A stretch of 64,000 bases of DNA. Origin: Escherichia phage JEP6. The DNA is taken from sequence record MT764206.1; one strand, written 5' to 3'. The notes under the pieces were generated by a model, which was not told the DNA's origin, did not search any database, and saw only the letters and a program-made list of their open reading frames with translations. Positions 24,868 through 34,242 of this stretch are shown in pieces (within the stretch, counting starts at the first letter, position 1; each line of letters begins with the position of its first letter). The position numbers and the translations under genes were made by a program.

Positions 24868-25104
24868 TTAACCACCTATTTCTGTAGGTGTAAACATTGC
24901 AGCATTCTTAGTTTTCCAAGTTGCTGCATCGGAAACTACAGTAGAATATGCCGCCTTTTCAGAAGGAAAGGTCTGATAATGAGAATCTGCAATACGGTGT
25001 TCATTTGAATATACATCAAATGCTACAGAAACTTCCATACCTTTAACTTCTTTGCCTTCACCTGCTGGATGAGTAAAGGTCTTGATGTTAACGAAACCAC
25101 CCAT
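24868..25104 (-). CDS. soc: small outer capsid protein Soc
   Basis: 78 aa; VNIKTF...GKE(V/I)SVAF...HYQTFPSEKAAYSTV matches T4 Soc. Confidence 0.8.
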   Translation of the reverse strand: MGGFVNIKTFTHPAGEGKEVKGMEVSVAFDVYSNEHRIADSHYQTFPSEKAAYSTVVSDAATWKTKNAAMFTPTEIGG

Positions 25105-25128: not shown

Positions 25129-25285
25129 ACAGGTGTATTTATAACTTACAATTTGGCGTCTTTCCAGAGTTGTTCAATAATCTCTTGGTCTATTTCTTTA
25201 GTTATTTCATTACGTAATAAGGCAGTAAGGGCTTTCGCCCTTTTCTTATTCAACTTTTTGAGTTGACGTTTATTTAATTTAGCCA

Positions 25286-25804
25286 TTAATAACCTCGGTC
25301 TTGACGAGCGAAGTTTTCAGCATTTTTCAGATAATAAAGTTTAAAGATTTCTTCAGCCGTAAGACCGAGACCTTGGAACATGTTCAGAACGAAATGAAGA
25401 ATATCAATCATTTCGAATTTAATTTCCAACTGGTCTTGTGGAGACAAATCAGTAATTAAAGTTTCACGACGTTCACCATGTTGAGCTTTCCAAGGCTTCC
25501 ATACAGCAGATGCATCTTTTTCGCCATTGCTCATACCACCAAGAGAAGTCAGAAGTTCACGGAATTCATCATCAATATAATCTTTCTGATTACGCAGCCA
25601 ATCAACAACTTCACCTGCAGTAGCCAAATCATCAGGATGACGGTTATATTCAGGTTTATCTTTAGCTAAACGAACCTGCAGAGATTTCTGCATGTCAAGC
25701 ATAACTTGCAACGGGTCTTTTTCATCACCGAGAATATCCCAGTATTCATTTTGAGCTTTATCAGCGCCTTCAATCAGTTGTGAACATTCATTAAAGTATG
25801 CCAT
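25286..25804 (-). CDS. 56: dCTPase/dCDPase/dUTPase
   Basis: Start at MAYFNEC (SD AAAGGAAAAA), about 172 aa, MazG-like. Confidence 0.8.
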   Translation of the reverse strand: MAYFNECSQLIEGADKAQNEYWDILGDEKDPLQVMLDMQKSLQVRLAKDKPEYNRHPDDLATAGEVVDWLRNQKDYIDDEFRELLTSLGGMSNGEKDASAVWKPWKAQHGERRETLITDLSPQDQLEIKFEMIDILHFVLNMFQGLGLTAEEIFKLYYLKNAENFARQDRGY

Positions 25805-25864: not shown

Positions 25865-26653
<789 letters not shown>

Positions 26654-26754: not shown

Positions 26755-26955
26755 ATGGTACAAAAATTAATGGCACTTGTTAATGCCATCAAAGGTAATA
26801 AAAAGCGTATAGCTTTTACTATTTCTGCTATGATAGGAATTTTACTTTGGAATTTTGTTTTATCGCCAGTTGCTATTGCTCATGGCGTTAGTATTCCAGT
26901 AGTTACTCTTGATACATTCGTAGATTTAGCATTTGCTTTAGTTGGGTTAATTTAA
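26755..26955 (+). CDS. small membrane protein on plus strand inside leftward block
   Basis: 66 aa, strong SD AAAGGAGG, ATAAATA late-promoter-like motif upstream; stop overlaps gene 61 stop (convergent). Confidence 0.45.
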   Translation: MVQKLMALVNAIKGNKKRIAFTISAMIGILLWNFVLSPVAIAHGVSIPVVTLDTFVDLAFALVGLI

Positions 26956-27980
26956 ATCTTAGCATATTTAGATAACCGCATTTTAGCCATCAACCCCTGT
27001 GCAATATTATTTTTCATATATTCCATAATTTGTTCAGGGGTTGCACCTTCCTTTCTAATCATATCATTAACATCTTTTGATTTCCAGGGAGATTTATCCC
27101 AAAACATAACCCTTTCTCCTGCATCAACTAATTTAGTCATTCGTTTGATAGTGTCAGGATGACGAGGTTCATTATCTAAAACCCACACACGCCTATCTTT
27201 AAATGGAACAACTTCTAGGTCTAATTGACCACCCGTAATAGCTATACCATTTTCAATAAAAAGTGAATCTATAGGTCCTTCTAGAACATATACATCACCA
27301 TCTTTAACCCGTTCGACTCCATAGATTTTTGTTGCTTCAGGATAAGCTTTGATGGTGATATATTTTTGAGGAGCATCTTTCTTTAATGCACGTCCTTGAA
27401 ACGACTCAGCTTTTCCATTAGCATTATAAATTGGAATAACAAGACGAGGCTCAGAAATTTCCTTTTTATATGTTCCCGGTGCTATGCTATTAACCAATTT
27501 AGGCCATTCAGTTGTAAACCAAAGATATTTCCATTTATCCTTTGGAATACAACGAGCTTTTACATATTTTATAATTGGATGGTCTTCCGCCAGTTTATCT
27601 AATCTAACACATGACGGAAGAGATTTAATTATTTTCTTCTCAGGTTGTTTAGGAAGTTCTTTAGGTTTTTCTACTGGACGACTTTTACCTTTTTCTTTTC
27701 TTATTTCAAAGATATACTCACGATATAAATCAGGTTCAAACTCCTTTAAATATATTCCGATTGGTGCATGATAGTTACAGTTATAACAATGAATATTTCC
27801 TTCATTATTATCACCATAATACCATCCACGAGCTTTATTCTGGTCGGTTTTTGAATCTCCACAAACAGGGCATCTAAACCGCAATTTAAAAGTTGAACTA
27901 TTATTTACTTGTGTGAATTTAGGTAAATGAGCTAATGCACGGTATGCAAACTCATTATCAATCCAAGGTATTGATGACAT
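26952..27980 (-). CDS. 61: DNA primase
   Basis: 342 aa, N-terminal zinc ribbon CPVCGDS...CYNCNYH; T4 gp61 length. Confidence 0.9.
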   Translation of the reverse strand: MSSIPWIDNEFAYRALAHLPKFTQVNNSSTFKLRFRCPVCGDSKTDQNKARGWYYGDNNEGNIHCYNCNYHAPIGIYLKEFEPDLYREYIFEIRKEKGKSRPVEKPKELPKQPEKKIIKSLPSCVRLDKLAEDHPIIKYVKARCIPKDKWKYLWFTTEWPKLVNSIAPGTYKKEISEPRLVIPIYNANGKAESFQGRALKKDAPQKYITIKAYPEATKIYGVERVKDGDVYVLEGPIDSLFIENGIAITGGQLDLEVVPFKDRRVWVLDNEPRHPDTIKRMTKLVDAGERVMFWDKSPWKSKDVNDMIRKEGATPEQIMEYMKNNIAQGLMAKMRLSKYAKI

Positions 27981-27982
27981 TT

Positions 27983-28147
27983 TTACTCTTCTTTTTCTTT
28001 AGATTCCTCTTTTTTCTTTTTAGGAATCTGTTCAGGACCTTTATTTACTACAGCACCTGATGTTGTTCCAGTAGAGATATTTTCAGGATTACCACCTGAA
28101 TCTCCAGCGACCATATCTTCTTTGATAAATTCTTTAAATGTTTTCAT
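27983..28147 (-). CDS. small acidic/Lys-rich protein (61.1 position)
   Basis: 54 aa, SD AGAGG; below track cutoff. Confidence 0.45.
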   Translation of the reverse strand: MKTFKEFIKEDMVAGDSGGNPENISTGTTSGAVVNKGPEQIPKKKKEESKEKEE

Positions 28148-28148
28148 A

Positions 28149-28775
28149 TTAACCTCTATTCATAAAAGCATTAAAAATTTGGTCATCAATAGAAACATTT
28201 ACTTTAGACTGTTTTTCGGATGGTAATTCATATCCACATATTACAATTTTGTGATCAATATCAAAATACACAGAAGCAATATGATTAATGCTGTTTTCAG
28301 TAAAGTCTAAATCAACATCAATATCTTTTTGACCAAAGCCCAAAGGATAAATAATGCGAGTAATTCGATTATCTTTAACAAAGATTCCACCGACATACTC
28401 TGTACTGCGTTTAAAGTCTACACGCCGACGAAATGAAAAATATTCAGGCTCTTTATGAGCTCGGCTTATAGGGCACAACGAATAACTAGAATAAGAGATG
28501 TCAAATCCTACGCCTTCAATATGAACTAAATTGTCATGATTAAACCAATTATAATCATATGCCAAGTCCATTAGATTGTCATATGTGAAAGGCACCGGAT
28601 TAACATCATTGGTCACAAGCATATAATTAGCAACTGCTATAATTTCATTATTTTTAACGAATACAAACCGTGATTGATGCGAATGGCCTGGACCTGCGTT
28701 TTCACGATTAATGATATAACACTGGGCACCTTTATATTTGTACGTGTCTTTACACTTGTGCATTTGATAAAGCAT
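28149..28775 (-). CDS. 61.2-position protein (possible AdfA-like anti-DarT factor)
   Basis: 208 aa; assignment by position only. Confidence 0.4.
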   Translation of the reverse strand: MLYQMHKCKDTYKYKGAQCYIINRENAGPGHSHQSRFVFVKNNEIIAVANYMLVTNDVNPVPFTYDNLMDLAYDYNWFNHDNLVHIEGVGFDISYSSYSLCPISRAHKEPEYFSFRRRVDFKRSTEYVGGIFVKDNRITRIIYPLGFGQKDIDVDLDFTENSINHIASVYFDIDHKIVICGYELPSEKQSKVNVSIDDQIFNAFMNRG

Positions 28776-29068
28776 TATTCACCTACCACTTCAGCGATGA
28801 TATTTTTATTATTAAAGTTTTTATCGCAATACAGAACATAATTATACTGCATTACACCACCAGACTTAAGCTGTTTTTGCACTTCAGCTTTCATTTCAGG
28901 ACGATCACGCTCAACGATATTCATAATATCTGCTTCAATTTGAGTTTCAACTTCAGTCTGATCCGCAGTCATAGACCATTCACACAAATCTTTATCATAA
29001 CCTGCCATAGCAGGCTGAGCAGCACAAGAAGCTAAAGCAAAAATTGCAGCAAAAACAAATTTTTTCAT
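28775..29068 (-). CDS. sp: spackle (periplasmic, signal peptide)
   Basis: Start at MKKFVFAAIFALASCAAQPAMAG; 97 aa as T4 Sp. Confidence 0.6.
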   Translation of the reverse strand: MKKFVFAAIFALASCAAQPAMAGYDKDLCEWSMTADQTEVETQIEADIMNIVERDRPEMKAEVQKQLKSGGVMQYNYVLYCDKNFNNKNIIAEVVGE

Positions 29069-29129
29069 GATTAATCTCCTCAGTAGTTTATGTTTATATA
29101 GTATCTCAATTTCCAATAAAAGTAAACAG

Positions 29130-29429
29130 TTATTTTAAAACTTTTGCGTAATCACATGTTACAAACTGTTTCTCTAGCTTAACGATCTTACGAAAATACC
29201 TTTTACACTGACGAATCTGCCGCTTCGTAGGGCGAACAGCAAACTTAATAAATTCCACTCGACCAAATGGAGGACTTTCTTCTGCTGGAATATCTAATAC
29301 TAATTCCCACGTATCTGCAATAAGTGCTTTGAATTGAGTATTTTTCCTAACGCTATACGGAGTAGGTTTAAATAAAACGATATGCATATTATCCTCGGCA
29401 ATCCACTTCACATACCTTCTTGTCATCAA
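29130..29429 (-). CDS. hypothetical protein (61.4 position)
   Basis: 99 aa basic protein. Confidence 0.5.
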   Translation of the reverse strand: MMTRRYVKWIAEDNMHIVLFKPTPYSVRKNTQFKALIADTWELVLDIPAEESPPFGRVEFIKFAVRPTKRQIRQCKRYFRKIVKLEKQFVTCDYAKVLK

Positions 29430-29571
29430 TGAAAGCTTTAACTAATGCTTTATTAACTTCAGCATACTGAGTAGTAGCCCATTGAACGTCATCTTTCATC
29501 ATTGTGGTTTCTTTAGTAAACATGCTTTCATTCTTAAACCACCCCATAAAAACTACCTTTACCAATTCCAT
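29389..29571 (-). CDS. dmd: Dmd, antitoxin against RnlA/LsoA
   Basis: 60 aa MELVKVVFMGWFKNESMFTKE...CEVDCRG matches T4 Dmd. Confidence 0.85.
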   Translation of the reverse strand: MELVKVVFMGWFKNESMFTKETTMMKDDVQWATTQYAEVNKALVKAFIDDKKVCEVDCRG

Positions 29572-29629
29572 AACAATCTCCCCATTTAACCAACAAGACT
29601 ACTATACCATAGTCTCGTCAGCTTGTAAA

Positions 29630-31057
29630 CTAAAATTTTAATTCATTTGCCAAAGCATCTAACTGAGCTCGAGTCGATTCGTTTCTTTGATAGCGATTCT
29701 GTTCAGCCTGAATCTGCTGTGAACCTGCTACCTCACTCACTCCAGTTGGAGTAGAATCTTGTTCAATTTCTACCCATTTCTGATTTCCTTTTTGAACACC
29801 CATCAAAAACTTATTCCATTTGTTTTTATCGCCATATCGTGATTTGATTTGCTTAATGAGTTGTTGTTCAGCAGCTGCTAGCTCCTCGGTTTCAATGACC
29901 GCAAGCATAAAATCAGCTGTTGCTGGAAGACCGGCAGATTCTGCAATATCGCTCATGTTAACATCAGAAGAATCCCAAGCTTGTTTACCAACCTGTGCTG
30001 CAGTCCAAAGAACAGTTTCGGTTTCAACAGCAAGAGCACGTAATTCCTCTGCAATGGCTTTAACAGTTGTGTAACTATTTTCTGAGTAAACTCTAATGCG
30101 GCAAGATTTACAAATACCCAGATAGTCGACAATAATGATTGTTGGAACAAAATTCTTCTTGAGCTTCAATTCGTTTAAAAGTGATCGAAATGTATTAGCG
30201 TCTGCTCCACCAGTAGGATACTGTTTAACGATTAAACGCCCAAGAGTAGATTTCTCACGCCATTTTTCCATTTTTCCTTTATATTCAGCGTAAGAAATAT
30301 GCCCATCATCAATGTCATCAAGAGAAACATCAAGCATATTAGCATCAATACGCTTAGCACAGACTTCTTCTGCCATTTCCATGGAAATGTAAAGAACATT
30401 ATGTCCGAGCTGCAAATAATCTGCTGCCAATGAACACAGACCTAATGACTTACCAACGTTAACGCCAGCCATTAAAACGTTCAGTGTTCCAGTCTCAGCT
30501 CCGCCTTTAGTAATTTTGTTTAGAATTCTGAGTTTAAATGGAACCTTACGAGCTTTATTCATATAAGATAGCCAACGTGCTTCGTAGTCATCCATCCAAT
30601 CATGACCAACGTAGCTATCAAATGAAATTGATAATGCTTGGCGCATGATGTCAGGAATAGCACCTACATCTGGCATTTTCTTATTGCGTTTTTCCGGAGG
30701 AAGCTCAGCATTAGTTTGAATTTCGATTATTTTAGACGTAGCATTAAACATCGCCCTTTGCTGAACATATTTTTCTGTTTCTTTTACTAACCAGCTGTGG
30801 TCTTCCGGAGAATCAGCCAGTTTTGAAATAAGTGTTTTTACACCAGAATATTCTGTTTCAGTAAATGAACTATTTTCTAATGCAACATTTAACGCATTAA
30901 TAGATGGAACACTATGATACTCATTGACATGAGATTTAATTAATTTGAATGTATTTTTAGCTGGACCACTTTCAAAATATTCTGAATCCATATATGGCCA
31001 AACTTTTGAAAAATAAGCTTGATCAAATATGAGATGGGAAAGAATAATTTCTACCAC
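29630..31057 (-). CDS. 41: replicative DNA helicase (DnaB-like)
   Basis: 475 aa; Walker A GVNVGKS; initiates at GTG with SD AAGGAG. Confidence 0.9.
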   Translation of the reverse strand: MVEIILSHLIFDQAYFSKVWPYMDSEYFESGPAKNTFKLIKSHVNEYHSVPSINALNVALENSSFTETEYSGVKTLISKLADSPEDHSWLVKETEKYVQQRAMFNATSKIIEIQTNAELPPEKRNKKMPDVGAIPDIMRQALSISFDSYVGHDWMDDYEARWLSYMNKARKVPFKLRILNKITKGGAETGTLNVLMAGVNVGKSLGLCSLAADYLQLGHNVLYISMEMAEEVCAKRIDANMLDVSLDDIDDGHISYAEYKGKMEKWREKSTLGRLIVKQYPTGGADANTFRSLLNELKLKKNFVPTIIIVDYLGICKSCRIRVYSENSYTTVKAIAEELRALAVETETVLWTAAQVGKQAWDSSDVNMSDIAESAGLPATADFMLAVIETEELAAAEQQLIKQIKSRYGDKNKWNKFLMGVQKGNQKWVEIEQDSTPTGVSEVAGSQQIQAEQNRYQRNESTRAQLDALANELKF

Positions 31058-32662: not shown

Positions 32663-33505
32663 TTAATCAACTGCTATTGGATGAATAGCATTAAACTTAT
32701 GAAATGCTTCTGATTTTTCTTTACGCGAAACACACATGCGAAGAACCTTTAGTGGTTCATCTTCTTCACCCAACGATTTTCGTTTTTCAATATTTGAAGT
32801 TTTCCAACGAGCTTGCTCTGGAAACTCTCTATTGATTTGCTCAAGCGCTCTATTATGTTTAGAATTACTACGAATTGAACTACACCCACCGGGAGCGTGT
32901 GATTTTCCAGATACAACTAGATATTTGAACAAGGCCAAATGCGGATAACCTTGATTAATTAAATTGAGAAATGCATACATATCTTCGCATAAATCAATTT
33001 TTCCATACCCAATTTGTTCTGTCGTAAGTTTTCCGAGGTCATACCATGTATTCGTGAATCCATATGAGTTTTCACGATAATTACCCCAAGATGAAGTAAT
33101 TTTAAAAATTGGTAGACGAGCATGACCGTGATAATACCCGCAATCCATGGCATCTTCAACGTATTGAATTAATTCATAGAACTGTTCACGAGTTAATTGA
33201 TTAATTTTATCTACACGCCGTTTATCGTCTCTCTTTCGTATTGAACTCATACGAATAGTAGTATCATCATCAATCATCCAGATTCGTTGACCTGCATACA
33301 TATCAGTAATTGCTTTACGAGTACCGGCAATTCCATTAACATCATCAGGAATAGTTACAATTTTAGCTCTAGACCCGTAAGCATCATAATAAGCTTTTTC
33401 TTCGTGTTCACGCACTACAATATGGGGTTCATAATCAGTCGGAAACATATTAAGGGCAGAAACTGCCCCTACACGCTGATAACTTGGAATTACGAATTGA
33501 ATCAT
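32663..33505 (-). CDS. putative DNA-modifying glycosyltransferase with DxD motif, not T4 beta-gt
   Basis: About 280 aa; WMIDDDT motif; occupies beta-gt locus between uvsX and 42; ATGA-coupled to gene 42 stop. Confidence 0.55.
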   Translation of the reverse strand: MIQFVIPSYQRVGAVSALNMFPTDYEPHIVVREHEEKAYYDAYGSRAKIVTIPDDVNGIAGTRKAITDMYAGQRIWMIDDDTTIRMSSIRKRDDKRRVDKINQLTREQFYELIQYVEDAMDCGYYHGHARLPIFKITSSWGNYRENSYGFTNTWYDLGKLTTEQIGYGKIDLCEDMYAFLNLINQGYPHLALFKYLVVSGKSHAPGGCSSIRSNSKHNRALEQINREFPEQARWKTSNIEKRKSLGEEDEPLKVLRMCVSRKEKSEAFHKFNAIHPIAVD

Positions 33506-34242
33506 TTCCACTCACCGTTATAATCTTTTTTCACAATATGAGTTTCGCCAGTATTCCACCAATGATCAACCAAGTAAAAATGACGAGAATATACATGAAG
33601 ACTTCCAACATTCCATATAATAGAACCTGCTTTATACTGACGAGTTGAATCGCCTGCATTCAAATCAGATACTAATTTATCTAATACGTATTTTTGCCAT
33701 GCATAATCATTACGGAATCCGAAGACCACGTCATTTGAGCGCATGTTAACAACCGCATTGACTTTCTTATCACGAATCAGGTACTGTACTGTATTAGTAC
33801 ACATGAAATCTGACATACCATCTTTATTGTAGTCAAATTGCATGGATGGACGAGTATAAATCATGATACCACGTCGAGAATCAGGATTTTGACCAAGTTC
33901 AGCTAAACACATATCATACTGGGCATAGTTATCTTCTGACCAGATAGCCCAACCATAATTCGAGTTAATTTCACCTTTAGAAGATGCTACCTGCTGCCAA
34001 ATCTTCGGTGTTTCACCTGGAATATCTTTAACAAACAGACTTTGAGACTTATACCATTCAAGTTCACGCTGAATGTATTCATCATTAAGAGCGCCAAAAA
34101 TAAACGGTTCATCTGCTACAAATGATGCGCCAATAATTTCAATAGTTTTAACGCCAGTTTTATCAACTACGAAATCTTTTTCCTTTAATGCAAGCCCCAA
34201 ATGAAGACGGATTTCTTCAACTGTCATAGAGTCACTAATCAT
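33502..34242 (-). CDS. 42: dCMP hydroxymethylase
   Basis: 246 aa, thymidylate-synthase-like; T4 gp42 length. Confidence 0.9.
   Translation of the reverse strand: MISDSMTVEEIRLHLGLALKEKDFVVDKTGVKTIEIIGASFVADEPFIFGALNDEYIQRELEWYKSQSLFVKDIPGETPKIWQQVASSKGEINSNYGWAIWSEDNYAQYDMCLAELGQNPDSRRGIMIYTRPSMQFDYNKDGMSDFMCTNTVQYLIRDKKVNAVVNMRSNDVVFGFRNDYAWQKYVLDKLVSDLNAGDSTRQYKAGSIIWNVGSLHVYSRHFYLVDHWWNTGETHIVKKDYNGEWK

Follow-up and report, generated by a model that had tools for sequence, protein, structure and literature searches.

The closest described counterpart of the locus reported here lies in bacteriophage T4, where five small genes—61.1, adfA, sp, tifA, and dmd—are encoded between gene 61 (primase) and gene 41 (helicase). 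T4 Dmd is an antitoxin that binds and blocks RnlA (RNase LS) and LsoA (PMC3014915). TifA (formerly 61.4), published as an 85-aa protein from a dmd–tifA operon, is a protein inhibitor of ToxN, the endoribonuclease of the type III toxIN system (PMC9391042), and AdfA (anti-DarT factor A) binds and neutralizes DarT1, an ADP-ribosyltransferase toxin (PMC11825919). The region was proposed as an 'anti-TA island' by Srikant, Guegler and Laub in 2022 (PMC9391042). Spackle (Sp), another of its products, acts in the periplasm, where its inhibition of gp5, the tail lysozyme, brings about superinfection exclusion rather than counter-defense; mature Spackle has 75 aa and a disulfide, and its residues contacting gp5 have been defined (PMC7677548). 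The only uncharacterized member of the island is gp61.1, for whose function we found no literature.

The primase–helicase interval of JEP6

We analyzed 64,000 nucleotides of Escherichia phage JEP6 (MT764206.1; this whole stretch is referred to as the window), whose source is a Tequatrovirus, i.e. a T4-like phage. Positions 27983–29571 comprise five minus-strand ORFs between genes 61 and 41 (Table 1), precisely the outer coordinates given in a preliminary description of this DNA, which had taken the interval for a compact cluster of small accessory and counter-defense genes, in agreement with the literature. Judged from the sequence, and with a probability of roughly 0.9, we consider the interval to be the JEP6 copy of the T4 61.1–adfA–sp–tifA–dmd locus, published as a probable 'anti-TA island'.

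Table 1 Features of the JEP6 interval and its flanks, with predicted promoters
Feature	Position	Strand	Length	Family or elements
Gene 61 (primase), flank	26952–27980			
Gene 61.1	27983–28147	−	54 aa	phrog_1823, T4 identity
adfA (T4 61.2)	28149–28775	−	208 aa	PF23813
sp (T4 61.3)	28775–29068	−	97 aa from ATG	PF25676
Probable early promoter, 61-nt tifA–sp spacer	29098–29127	−		TTTACT, 17 nt, TACTAT
tifA (T4 61.4)	29130–29387	−	85 aa	PF23945, phrog_2375
dmd (T4 61.5)	29389–29571	−	60 aa	PF17587
Predicted early sigma-70-type promoter, dmd–tifA operon	29601–29629	−		TTTACA, 17 nt, TG-TATAGT
Gene 41 (helicase), flank	29630–31057			

The locus DNA matches 630 phage records, T4 among them, and is 97.4% identical to T4 over 27900–29700. 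Gene order follows the T4 annotation, and the two phages share the five genes, their strand, lengths, and flanks, as well as a promoter upstream of dmd. The comparison with T4 61.1–61.5, suggested as a check in the preliminary description, gave protein identities of 100% (gp61.1), 98.6% (AdfA), 96.9% (Sp), 96.5% (TifA), and 98.3% (Dmd). JEP6 differs from T4 by ten amino acid substitutions in total—M103I, I162S, and P190S in AdfA; I5V, T8A, and K53E in Sp; N12S, E82K, and I83V in TifA; I22T in Dmd—none of which hits a residue named as critical in the papers cited here. The comparison establishes which genes are present, their order, and the state of their alleles.

Because each of the five ORFs matches a Pfam or PHROG family, they are not chance ORFs, and by these matches each belongs to a protein family. 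Sequence recognition had previously been granted to Dmd and Sp only; it extends to all five by Pfam, PHROG, and T4 identity. A Shine–Dalgarno sequence precedes the ATG in 5/5 genes. An NCBIfam search with the five proteins returned no meaningful match, and scans of the whole window for Rfam families and tRNAs returned none. Elsewhere in the window, a 46-aa ORF (25146–25286) matched major-capsid families weakly, its 16.7 bits lying below the cut-off of 24.4, and a PDB search with it returned no match; the capsid-family match is probably due to chance.

Since Srikant et al. had already proposed the 'anti-TA island' in 2022, the finding as such is known, and recognizing an already described locus of T4 in one of its close relatives adds very little that is new. 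It is useful for annotation, as adfA, tifA, and 61.1 are still labeled 'hypothetical protein' in many deposited genomes.

Predicted toxin-directed genes, Spackle, and their expression

The biochemical activities described below for the JEP6 products are predicted by homology to the T4 proteins (96.5–100% identity). The 60-aa ORF, described earlier as the Dmd antitoxin, is borne out as such: it aligns over residues 1–60 with positions 1–60/60 of the PF17587 profile (E 1.8e-45, 153.5 bits against a cut-off of 27), a full-length match to a family of ~60-aa proteins that includes T4 Dmd with its solved RnlA complex, and 59/60 residues equal those of PDB 5HY3 chain B ('Antitoxin Dmd'), I22T being the sole difference. 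JEP6 Dmd would thus be expected to bind and inhibit the endoribonucleases RnlA and LsoA.

The adjacent ORF had been placed correctly at the 61.4 position, and ToxIN had even been named for an assay, though its identity as the published ToxN inhibitor TifA was missed. It matches PF23945 (DUF7279; E 3.4e-20, 72.1 bits against a cut-off of 24.5) and phrog_2375 (E 4.5e-38), and its codons differ from those of T4 tifA by 15 synonymous and 3 non-synonymous changes over the 85 aa. The architecture of the TifA family, including its central positive charges, has been described (PMC9391042); the corresponding cluster, RPTKRQIRQCKRYFRKIVK, is present in JEP6. A PDB sequence search with TifA gave no match. 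We rejected the 99-aa form reported earlier, which starts at a TTG at 29429: it lacks a Shine–Dalgarno sequence, overlaps dmd by 41 nt, and is at odds with the T4 annotation, and the PHROG alignment begins only at its residue 15. Read from the ATG at 29387, which a GAGGA precedes at a distance of 5 nt, the ORF encodes 85 aa; the other four ORF sizes (54, 208, 97, and 60 aa) stood as described. The gene lies directly downstream of dmd (dmd stop, 29389–29391; tifA ATG, 29385–29387), with the promoter upstream of dmd. Its product likely inhibits ToxN, as in T4, where one copy of tifA suffices against toxIN on the chromosome but fails when toxIN is carried on a plasmid (PMC9391042); any effect of tifA would depend on toxIN dosage.

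For the 208-aa ORF, the link to 61.2 and DarTG proposed earlier turned out to be more than positional. The protein is a full-length AdfA by PF23813 (E 4.8e-137, 454.6 bits against a cut-off of 27), with residues 1–208 aligned to profile positions 1–211/211, and is 69% identical to AdfA of RB69; a lack of similarity to 61.2 proteins, named in the preliminary description as grounds for giving up the reading, is contradicted by its near-identity to T4 gp61.2. A PDB sequence search with AdfA returned no match. In RB69 AdfA, the exchange R164H switches on DarT1 neutralization (PMC11825919). The aligned residue in JEP6 is His165, so that, by sequence, the protein carries the histidine that marks the DarT1-neutralizing allele; the I162S substitution lies three residues from it. 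T4-type AdfA is a weak DarT1 binder that works only when over-expressed, and T4 resistance to DarTG1 does not require it, this task being performed by AdfN (gp30.3) (PMC11825919). JEP6 AdfA, as a T4-type allele, would bind DarT1 weakly, and its deletion would be silent on DarTG1 hosts because AdfN masks the loss.

The 97-aa signal-peptide protein assigned to Spackle is likewise confirmed in identity (PF25676, E 4.8e-45, 152.5 bits against a cut-off of 27; PDB 6X6O, E 6e-61). It is a precursor with a 22-aa signal peptide, and its alignment with the crystallized mature protein, 7CN6, starts at residue 23. The protein has both cysteines (C29 and C81), and the contact residues for the gp5 lysozyme (S32–A35, Q37, N76) are all unchanged. 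Spackle does not belong with the counter-defense proteins, its known function being superinfection exclusion through gp5 (PMC7677548): JEP6 Sp would be exported to the periplasm and there inhibit gp5, the tail lysozyme, of T-even phages that superinfect the cell. A 113-aa form initiated at a TTG was rejected; it would start inside the −35 element of a promoter and without a Shine–Dalgarno sequence, and misfits both the homologs and the T4 annotation, leaving the 97-aa ATG form as the real one.

Leftward early transcription would proceed from two sigma-70-type promoters, assigned here by their sequence and with the early timing taken from the T4 literature. The first lies right after the gene 41 stop codon, scored 10/12 in a promoter scan, has an extended −10 TG, and is conserved in T4, where an early promoter drives dmd–61.4 (PMC9391042); in JEP6 it would serve the dmd–tifA operon. 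The second, in the tifA–sp spacer, would serve sp–adfA–61.1, with read-through into gene 61. Its score of 8/12 is under the scan threshold, and we therefore list it as a probable promoter; the spacer differs from that of T4 by one substitution and a 1-nt insertion only, and a promoter downstream of tifA is mentioned in PMC9391042. A terminator scan predicted none within the island, and a search for MotA-box middle promoters gave a single plausible site, AATGCTTTT-12-TAATAT at about 28170.

A functional island or a tolerant insertion site

The homologs of dmd, tifA, and adfA all fall within 1.45 kb (28149–29571), with sp as the sole interruption, and these neighboring genes are each predicted to act against a different TA toxin. 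According to the anti-TA reading, three small products would be directed at three different abortive-infection TA systems, each disabling the toxin of one system before that toxin acts: Dmd would block the type II RNases RnlA and LsoA; TifA, the type III RNase ToxN; and AdfA would bind the type IV DNA ADP-ribosyltransferase DarT1, weakly in the case of the T4-type allele. Anti-CRISPR and anti-restriction islands resemble this locus in consisting of small early genes with different host immune targets and a content that varies among relatives. Unlike them, the JEP6 locus would target TA toxins, and it adds a superinfection-exclusion gene as well as 61.1, so far without a role.

TA toxins are the targets of only 3/5 genes, with Sp acting otherwise and gp61.1 evolving differently, and the 'island' may for this reason be a co-location rather than a functional unit. 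It is possible, at clearly less than even odds, that the interval is a slot tolerant of cargo, flanked by replication genes that are both essential, in which small early genes with no relation to one another are gained and replaced, and that the three anti-toxin genes are co-located there without being coupled. Its gene content indeed differs greatly among relatives. The Mosigvirus RB69 has homologs of 61.1, adfA, sp, tifA, and dmd in the same order, but in an interval of about 3.7 kb as compared to 1.6 kb in JEP6, with imm, imm.1, and six more unnamed short ORFs. RB69 AdfA carries R164, the inactive state, RB69 61.1 is a 92-aa protein with an N-terminal extension, and RB69 TifA is without the C-terminal extension. 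Genomes of one Tequatrovirus class align with only ~68% of the query, in a shorter span, as would fit an absence of adfA, while extra ORFs are found in ESh36 (345 nt) and 235Ecol030PP (126 nt). The CC31 interval has a different set of five small ORFs, and in Vibrio phage K571 only 61.1 is annotated between the helicase and primase genes. Moreover, Sp, like the imm of RB69, serves superinfection exclusion and not anti-TA defense. However, three different anti-toxin genes side by side exceed what a random slot would be expected to hold, and dmd and tifA are co-transcribed. The two readings are compatible, since anti-defense islands are themselves variable cargo slots.

Resemblance of gp61.1 to the major capsid protein

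The new element of this analysis concerns gp61.1, which by sequence comparison copies a short segment of gp23, the major capsid protein of the phage itself. It is identical to T4 gp61.1 at the protein level (one synonymous, zero non-synonymous differences) and belongs to phrog_1823 (E 6.8e-34). The family (phrog_1823/phrog_2086), with 54 cluster representatives in a library of 1.84 billion proteins and 18 invariant columns over 15 homologs, has the core E-[DEA]-M-V-A-G-D-S-G-G...N-I-A-S-G-T-T-S-G-A-V-V-N-K-G-P and, C-terminal to it, a tail rich in Lys, or in Lys and Glu in the case of JEP6. Homology extends over gp23 residues 58–94, approximately, a segment spanning the prohead-protease site and the N-arm and flanked by the gp23 head-length mutations A66D and A94V. 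The homology is solid: phmmer against the PDB (E 0.0039), the family profile against gp23 (E 1.6e-5), hhalign (E 2.9e-10 and 2.6e-12), and a reciprocal hmmsearch (E 3.4e-7) in which it was the sole match among 930 ORF segments. Like gp61.1, gp23 has a hydrophobic-x-E, then (x)-[MVI]-x-G-D-x-G...N-I-A-x-G-x-[TS]-S-G-A-[VI]...G-P and then basic residues, with the glutamate at the cleavage site of the prohead protease gp21; the alignment places I8-K9-E10|D11 of gp61.1 on L63-T64-E65|A66 of gp23. Unlike gp23, gp61.1 lacks everything else that makes up the HK97-fold capsid protein, and roughly the first 57 residues of the cleaved N-terminal piece are missing as well. Pfam gave no match for gp61.1, its homologs, or the N-terminal domain of the long forms described below.

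The AlphaFold2 model of gp61.1 has a low-confidence pLDDT of 60.6, arguing that the protein is not globular, and in the best explanation it would be a disordered peptide copying the gp23 segment around the prohead-protease site. Its genome position points to probable early expression.

Long forms of the family have ~120–170 aa, and JEP6 gp61.1 corresponds to their C-terminal module alone; as judged by this alignment, it is a truncated form of a primase-adjacent protein. In 3/3 distant T4-like phages checked—CC31, a KVP40-like Vibrio phage, and an Acinetobacter phage—the long form is encoded directly upstream of the primase gene, and tblastn with it retrieved 851 phage records at E ≤ 1e-3 (the long form modeled by AlphaFold2 from its single sequence has a pLDDT of 41.6, too low for use). 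Because the family adjoins the primase gene in three distant phages, gp61.1 should not be assumed to be defense cargo. It may, as a tentative reading, be the remnant of an old primase-associated gene whose role lies in replication or in the context of its own expression. The gp23 likeness would then reflect a binding partner common to both proteins or an ancient duplication of the segment, without any role in defense. The conserved primase neighborhood, the wide occurrence of the long form, the survival of only the C-terminal module in the JEP6 window, and the near-absence of nucleotide change in 61.1 relative to T4 are all consistent with such a remnant, whereas no replication-related domain was detected. 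Also at variance with it, the Tequatroviruses lost the conserved N-terminal domain and kept the gp23-like module almost unchanged, so that it is this module that is under selection.

More speculatively, gp61.1 might be a decoy or pseudo-substrate, a free disordered peptide made early that mimics the gp23 cleavage site and N-arm. Its target could be the phage protease gp21 or host sensors of capsid maturation (protease-tripwire CBASS CD-NTases, Lit, or capsid-binding toxins). The robust homology spans the cleavage site exactly, a hydrophobic-x-Glu directly precedes the core in 31/34 family representatives, gp61.1 is predicted to be non-globular, and the locus is rich in counter-defense genes. 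A copy of the Gol peptide of gp23, the Lit target, within gp61.1 was rejected: homology ends at gp23 residues ~94–101, where the region of the Gol peptide starts, with the sequence downstream unaligned, which also counts against a decoy. Further arguments come from gp21 itself, which cuts after Glu in I/LxE motifs and which activates CBASS by cutting a disordered CD-NTase loop (PMC12991175). Such a motif is present in gp61.1 as I8-K9-E10, in a peptide predicted to be disordered, although we do not class gp61.1 among the gp21 substrates. Against a decoy, however, T4 without acb1 and acb2—in which 61.1 is retained, as far as reported—is still restricted by protease-sensing CBASS (PMC12991175), gp61.1 is probably early while gp21 is late and confined to proheads, and the family stays beside the primase gene in distant relatives, unlike typical anti-defense cargo. 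A decoy function is speculation and, in our estimation, improbable.

If it were nonetheless true, gp61.1 would be a fourth, mechanistically new counter-defense factor of the locus, and its modulation of gp21 or of capsid-sensing immunity, if real, would represent a new type of phage countermeasure. With host sensing of the prohead protease just reported, gp61.1, as a strongly conserved peptide, is now a defined target.

Gene content of the interval between genes 61 and 41

The interval between the primase and helicase genes (27983–29571) contains exactly the five leftward ORFs that the preliminary description had placed there, while one of their sizes required correction: the ORF given as 99 aa encodes 85 aa, starting at an ATG at 29387 with GAGGA upstream—a length in agreement with T4, the PHROG family, and published work. 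The longer version, starting at a TTG at 29429, lacks a ribosome-binding site and overlaps dmd, and is an artefact that arises when the first possible start is taken.

By megablast, 630 phage records matched 27900–29700, the best of which were all Tequatrovirus and at most 98.6% identical. T4 DNA was 97.4% identical over this span, and its matching stretch is annotated 61, 61.1, 61.2, sp, 61.4, dmd, and 41, that is, with the same gene order, with gene lengths equal to those in the window, and with protein identities of 96.5–100%. This locus has already been described in T4. Sequence support had initially been granted to Dmd and Sp only, whereas all five proteins have family matches. This supported the reading as a compact accessory and counter-defence cluster and sharpened it: the sequences identify 61.2 as adfA and 61.4 as tifA, and the role of Sp is superinfection exclusion.

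Features of the 61–41 interval and of primase-adjacent 61.1 long forms in distant T4-like phages (genes from the ORF listing; identities and substitutions are those of the protein versus T4)
Feature	Coordinates	Strand	Product or sequence	Family match	Identity to T4	Substitutions
Primase gene (61)	26952–27980		342 aa			
61.1	27983–28147	minus	54 aa	phrog_1823, E 6.8e-34	100%	none
adfA (61.2)	28149–28775	minus	208 aa	PF23813 AdfA, full length, E 4.8e-137	98.6%	M103I, I162S, P190S
sp (61.3)	28775–29068	minus	97 aa from ATG	PF25676 T4_Spackle, E 4.8e-45	96.9%	I5V, T8A, K53E
tifA (61.4)	29130–29387	minus	85 aa from ATG	PF23945 DUF7279, E 3.4e-20	96.5%	N12S, E82K, I83V
dmd (61.5)	29389–29571	minus	60 aa	PF17587 Dmd, E 1.8e-45	98.3%	I22T
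Early-type promoter (promoter scan)	29629–29601, directly after gene 41 stop codon		TTTACA, 17 nt, TG-TATAGT			
Putative promoter (below scan threshold)	61-nt tifA–sp spacer		TTTACT, 17 nt, TACTAT			
Helicase gene (41)	29630–31057		475 aa			
61.1 long form, locus L016	2980–3444					
61.1 long form, locus L017	3001–3486					
61.1 long form, locus L018	2971–3447					

Published gene functions and expression signals

The 60-aa protein proved to be the Dmd antitoxin, as first recognised: 59 of its 60 residues are identical to PDB 5HY3 chain B (‘Antitoxin Dmd’). Dmd blocks LsoA as well as RnlA. Binding of RnlA (RNase LS) by this early protein spares middle and late T4 mRNAs from destruction (PMC3014915). 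Gene 61.4 has been renamed tifA for its 85-aa product, a protein inhibitor of ToxN; it shares an early promoter and transcript with dmd, and its native dosage suffices against chromosomal toxIN, whereas plasmid-borne toxIN is overcome only after amplification (PMC9391042). The same study termed the region a probable ‘anti-TA island’ and named its other genes as antitoxin candidates. Within the island, tifA has the lowest DNA identity to T4 (93.0% versus 97–99% for its neighbours), and of the 18 codons that differ, 15 do so synonymously, a sign of purifying selection. The pattern suggests that this allele arrived by recombination from another lineage and was then kept by such selection.

The 208-aa ORF, initially placed at the 61.2 position, matches AdfA over its full length. 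In RB69, the AdfA substitution R164H leads to binding and neutralisation of DarT1; T4 AdfA naturally carries a histidine at this position, yet is a weak binder and can be dispensed with, since resistance is supplied by AdfN (gp30.3) (PMC11825919). Since His165 of the window protein aligns with RB69 Arg164, this AdfA is, as judged by alignment, the T4-type ‘active but weak’ allele. The substitution I162S lies three residues ahead of this DarT1-specificity histidine.

The signal-peptide protein of spackle size is indeed Spackle, with matches to structures 6X6O and 7CN6 in addition to its Pfam family; the mature chain begins at residue 23, which confirms a 22-residue signal peptide. Once exported, Spackle inhibits gp5, the tail lysozyme of incoming phages (PMC7677548), and the window protein keeps the contact residues named in that work (S32–A35, Q37, and N76) together with both cysteines.

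The early-type promoter downstream of gene 41 is conserved in T4, and the putative one in the tifA–sp spacer would correspond to the ‘promoter downstream of tifA’ of PMC9391042. A terminator scan predicted no terminators within the island, and a Shine-Dalgarno sequence precedes each ATG start. A MotA-box-like sequence with a –10-like sequence (AATGCTTTT, 12 nt, TAATAT) overlaps both the adfA end and the 61.1 start (about 28140–28172, minus) and might serve the primase gene as a middle promoter.

A gp23-like module in gp61.1

Residues 3–39 of gp61.1 align with residues 58–94 of gp23, the major capsid protein (phmmer against PDB, E 0.0039), a match that strengthened to E 1.6e-5 with a profile of 15 gp61.1 homologues. 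Comparison by hhalign with the gp23 N-termini of nine diverse T4-like phages gave a probability of 96.8% (E 2.9e-10), and a more diverse gp61.1-family alignment gave 97.6% (E 2.6e-12), covering gp23 residues 60–101. Reciprocally, a gp23 N-terminus profile run against all 930 stop-to-stop segments of the window retrieved only the 61.1 ORF (E 3.4e-7; next, 0.18). Some database records already name gp61.1 a ‘major capsid domain-containing protein’, and our literature search on gp61.1 found no paper discussing it or its gp23 homology. A 46-aa Lys-rich ORF (25146–25286, minus; phrog_14392) also gave capsid hits, odd beside the gp61.1 result, that stayed below threshold (Pfam Gp23, 16.7 bits against a cut-off of 24.4; phrog_138, E 0.0086); a PDB search with it returned no match, and the similarity is probably due to chance.

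In the alignment, gp61.1 I8-K9-E10|D11 falls on gp23 L63-T64-E65|A66, placing Glu10 on the Glu of the site where the 65 residues at the N-terminus are cut off by the prohead protease gp21 (PMC9546572); gp21 cleaves after Glu within I/LxE motifs (PMC12991175). The rest of the shared segment corresponds to the gp23* N-arm, which is disordered in the unexpanded head, makes inter-capsomer contacts after expansion, and has the head-length mutations A66D and A94V at its two ends (PMC9546572). Close homologues share 18 invariant columns, one of which is Glu10. A strict pattern located the core in 34 family representatives, and in 31 of these a hydrophobic-x-Glu motif stands immediately before it. The AlphaFold2 model of gp61.1 is non-globular and of low confidence (pLDDT 60.6), in keeping with a linear-motif peptide.

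Among 1.84 billion cluster representatives, the gp61.1 family has 54 members, most of 120–170 aa. In these long forms the gp61.1 module is C-terminal and follows a conserved N-terminal domain some 70 residues in length. Used as a tblastn query, one long form matched 851 phage records (Escherichia, Klebsiella, Acinetobacter, Vibrio, Aeromonas, and other phages). In all three distant genera inspected, the long form is the gene next upstream of primase. The 64-kb window has no copy of the N-terminal domain and retains only the C-terminal 54-aa module; the history of gp61.1 thus differs from that of its four neighbours. These comparisons suggest that gp61.1 represents an old gene linked to primase, with only the gp23-like module retained in Tequatroviruses. 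Its role might be linked to replication or expression and tied to the primase gene, or it might be morphogenetic, via a partner, such as the gp22 scaffold or gp21, that it has in common with the gp23 N-terminus. That gp61.1 serves as a decoy or pseudo-substrate is attractive because a CBASS CD-NTase becomes active when gp21 cuts its LPE-containing disordered loop (2026 preprint, PMC12991175), but seems improbable: the restricted T4 strain in that work lacks only acb1 and acb2 and, as far as reported, still has 61.1, which makes a strong effect on that CBASS less likely. The gp23 homology of gp61.1 and its primase link are a small, testable side result.

Variation of the interval among relatives

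The window phage is a mosaic T4 relative, not T4 itself. No segF homing endonuclease lies between soc (24868–25104, minus) and gene 56, where the 46-aa ORF stands in its place. A TAGT-family glycosyltransferase (32663–33511, minus), annotated as beta-glucosyl-HMC-alpha-glucosyltransferase in relatives, follows uvsX at the position of T4 segA. The sole plus-strand gene nearby, T4 dam.1 (26755–26955; phrog_2024; hydrophobic, 66 aa), converges on the primase gene with a 4-nt overlap of their ends and contains a terminator-like hairpin (minus strand, 26792–26767). A dam gene is present in the window (25865–26644), whereas none is annotated in Pu-Krd-SF5, its closest relative over the island.

About half of the matching phage genomes lack at least part of the interval, and one Tequatrovirus class reaches a query coverage of only about 68% over a shorter span, which absence of adfA would fit. 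Additional ORFs occur between 61.1 and adfA in ESh36 (345 nt) and between adfA and sp in 235Ecol030PP (126 nt). The RB69 interval (L003, 3318–6899) further carries imm, imm.1, and six small unnamed ORFs, the five small ORFs of CC31 are a different set, and in a KVP40-like Vibrio phage 61.1 is the sole annotated gene between the helicase and primase genes. Given this varying content, the dmd-to-adfA part behaves as exchangeable cargo, and the extra ORFs in relatives are uncharacterised candidates for further anti-defence genes.
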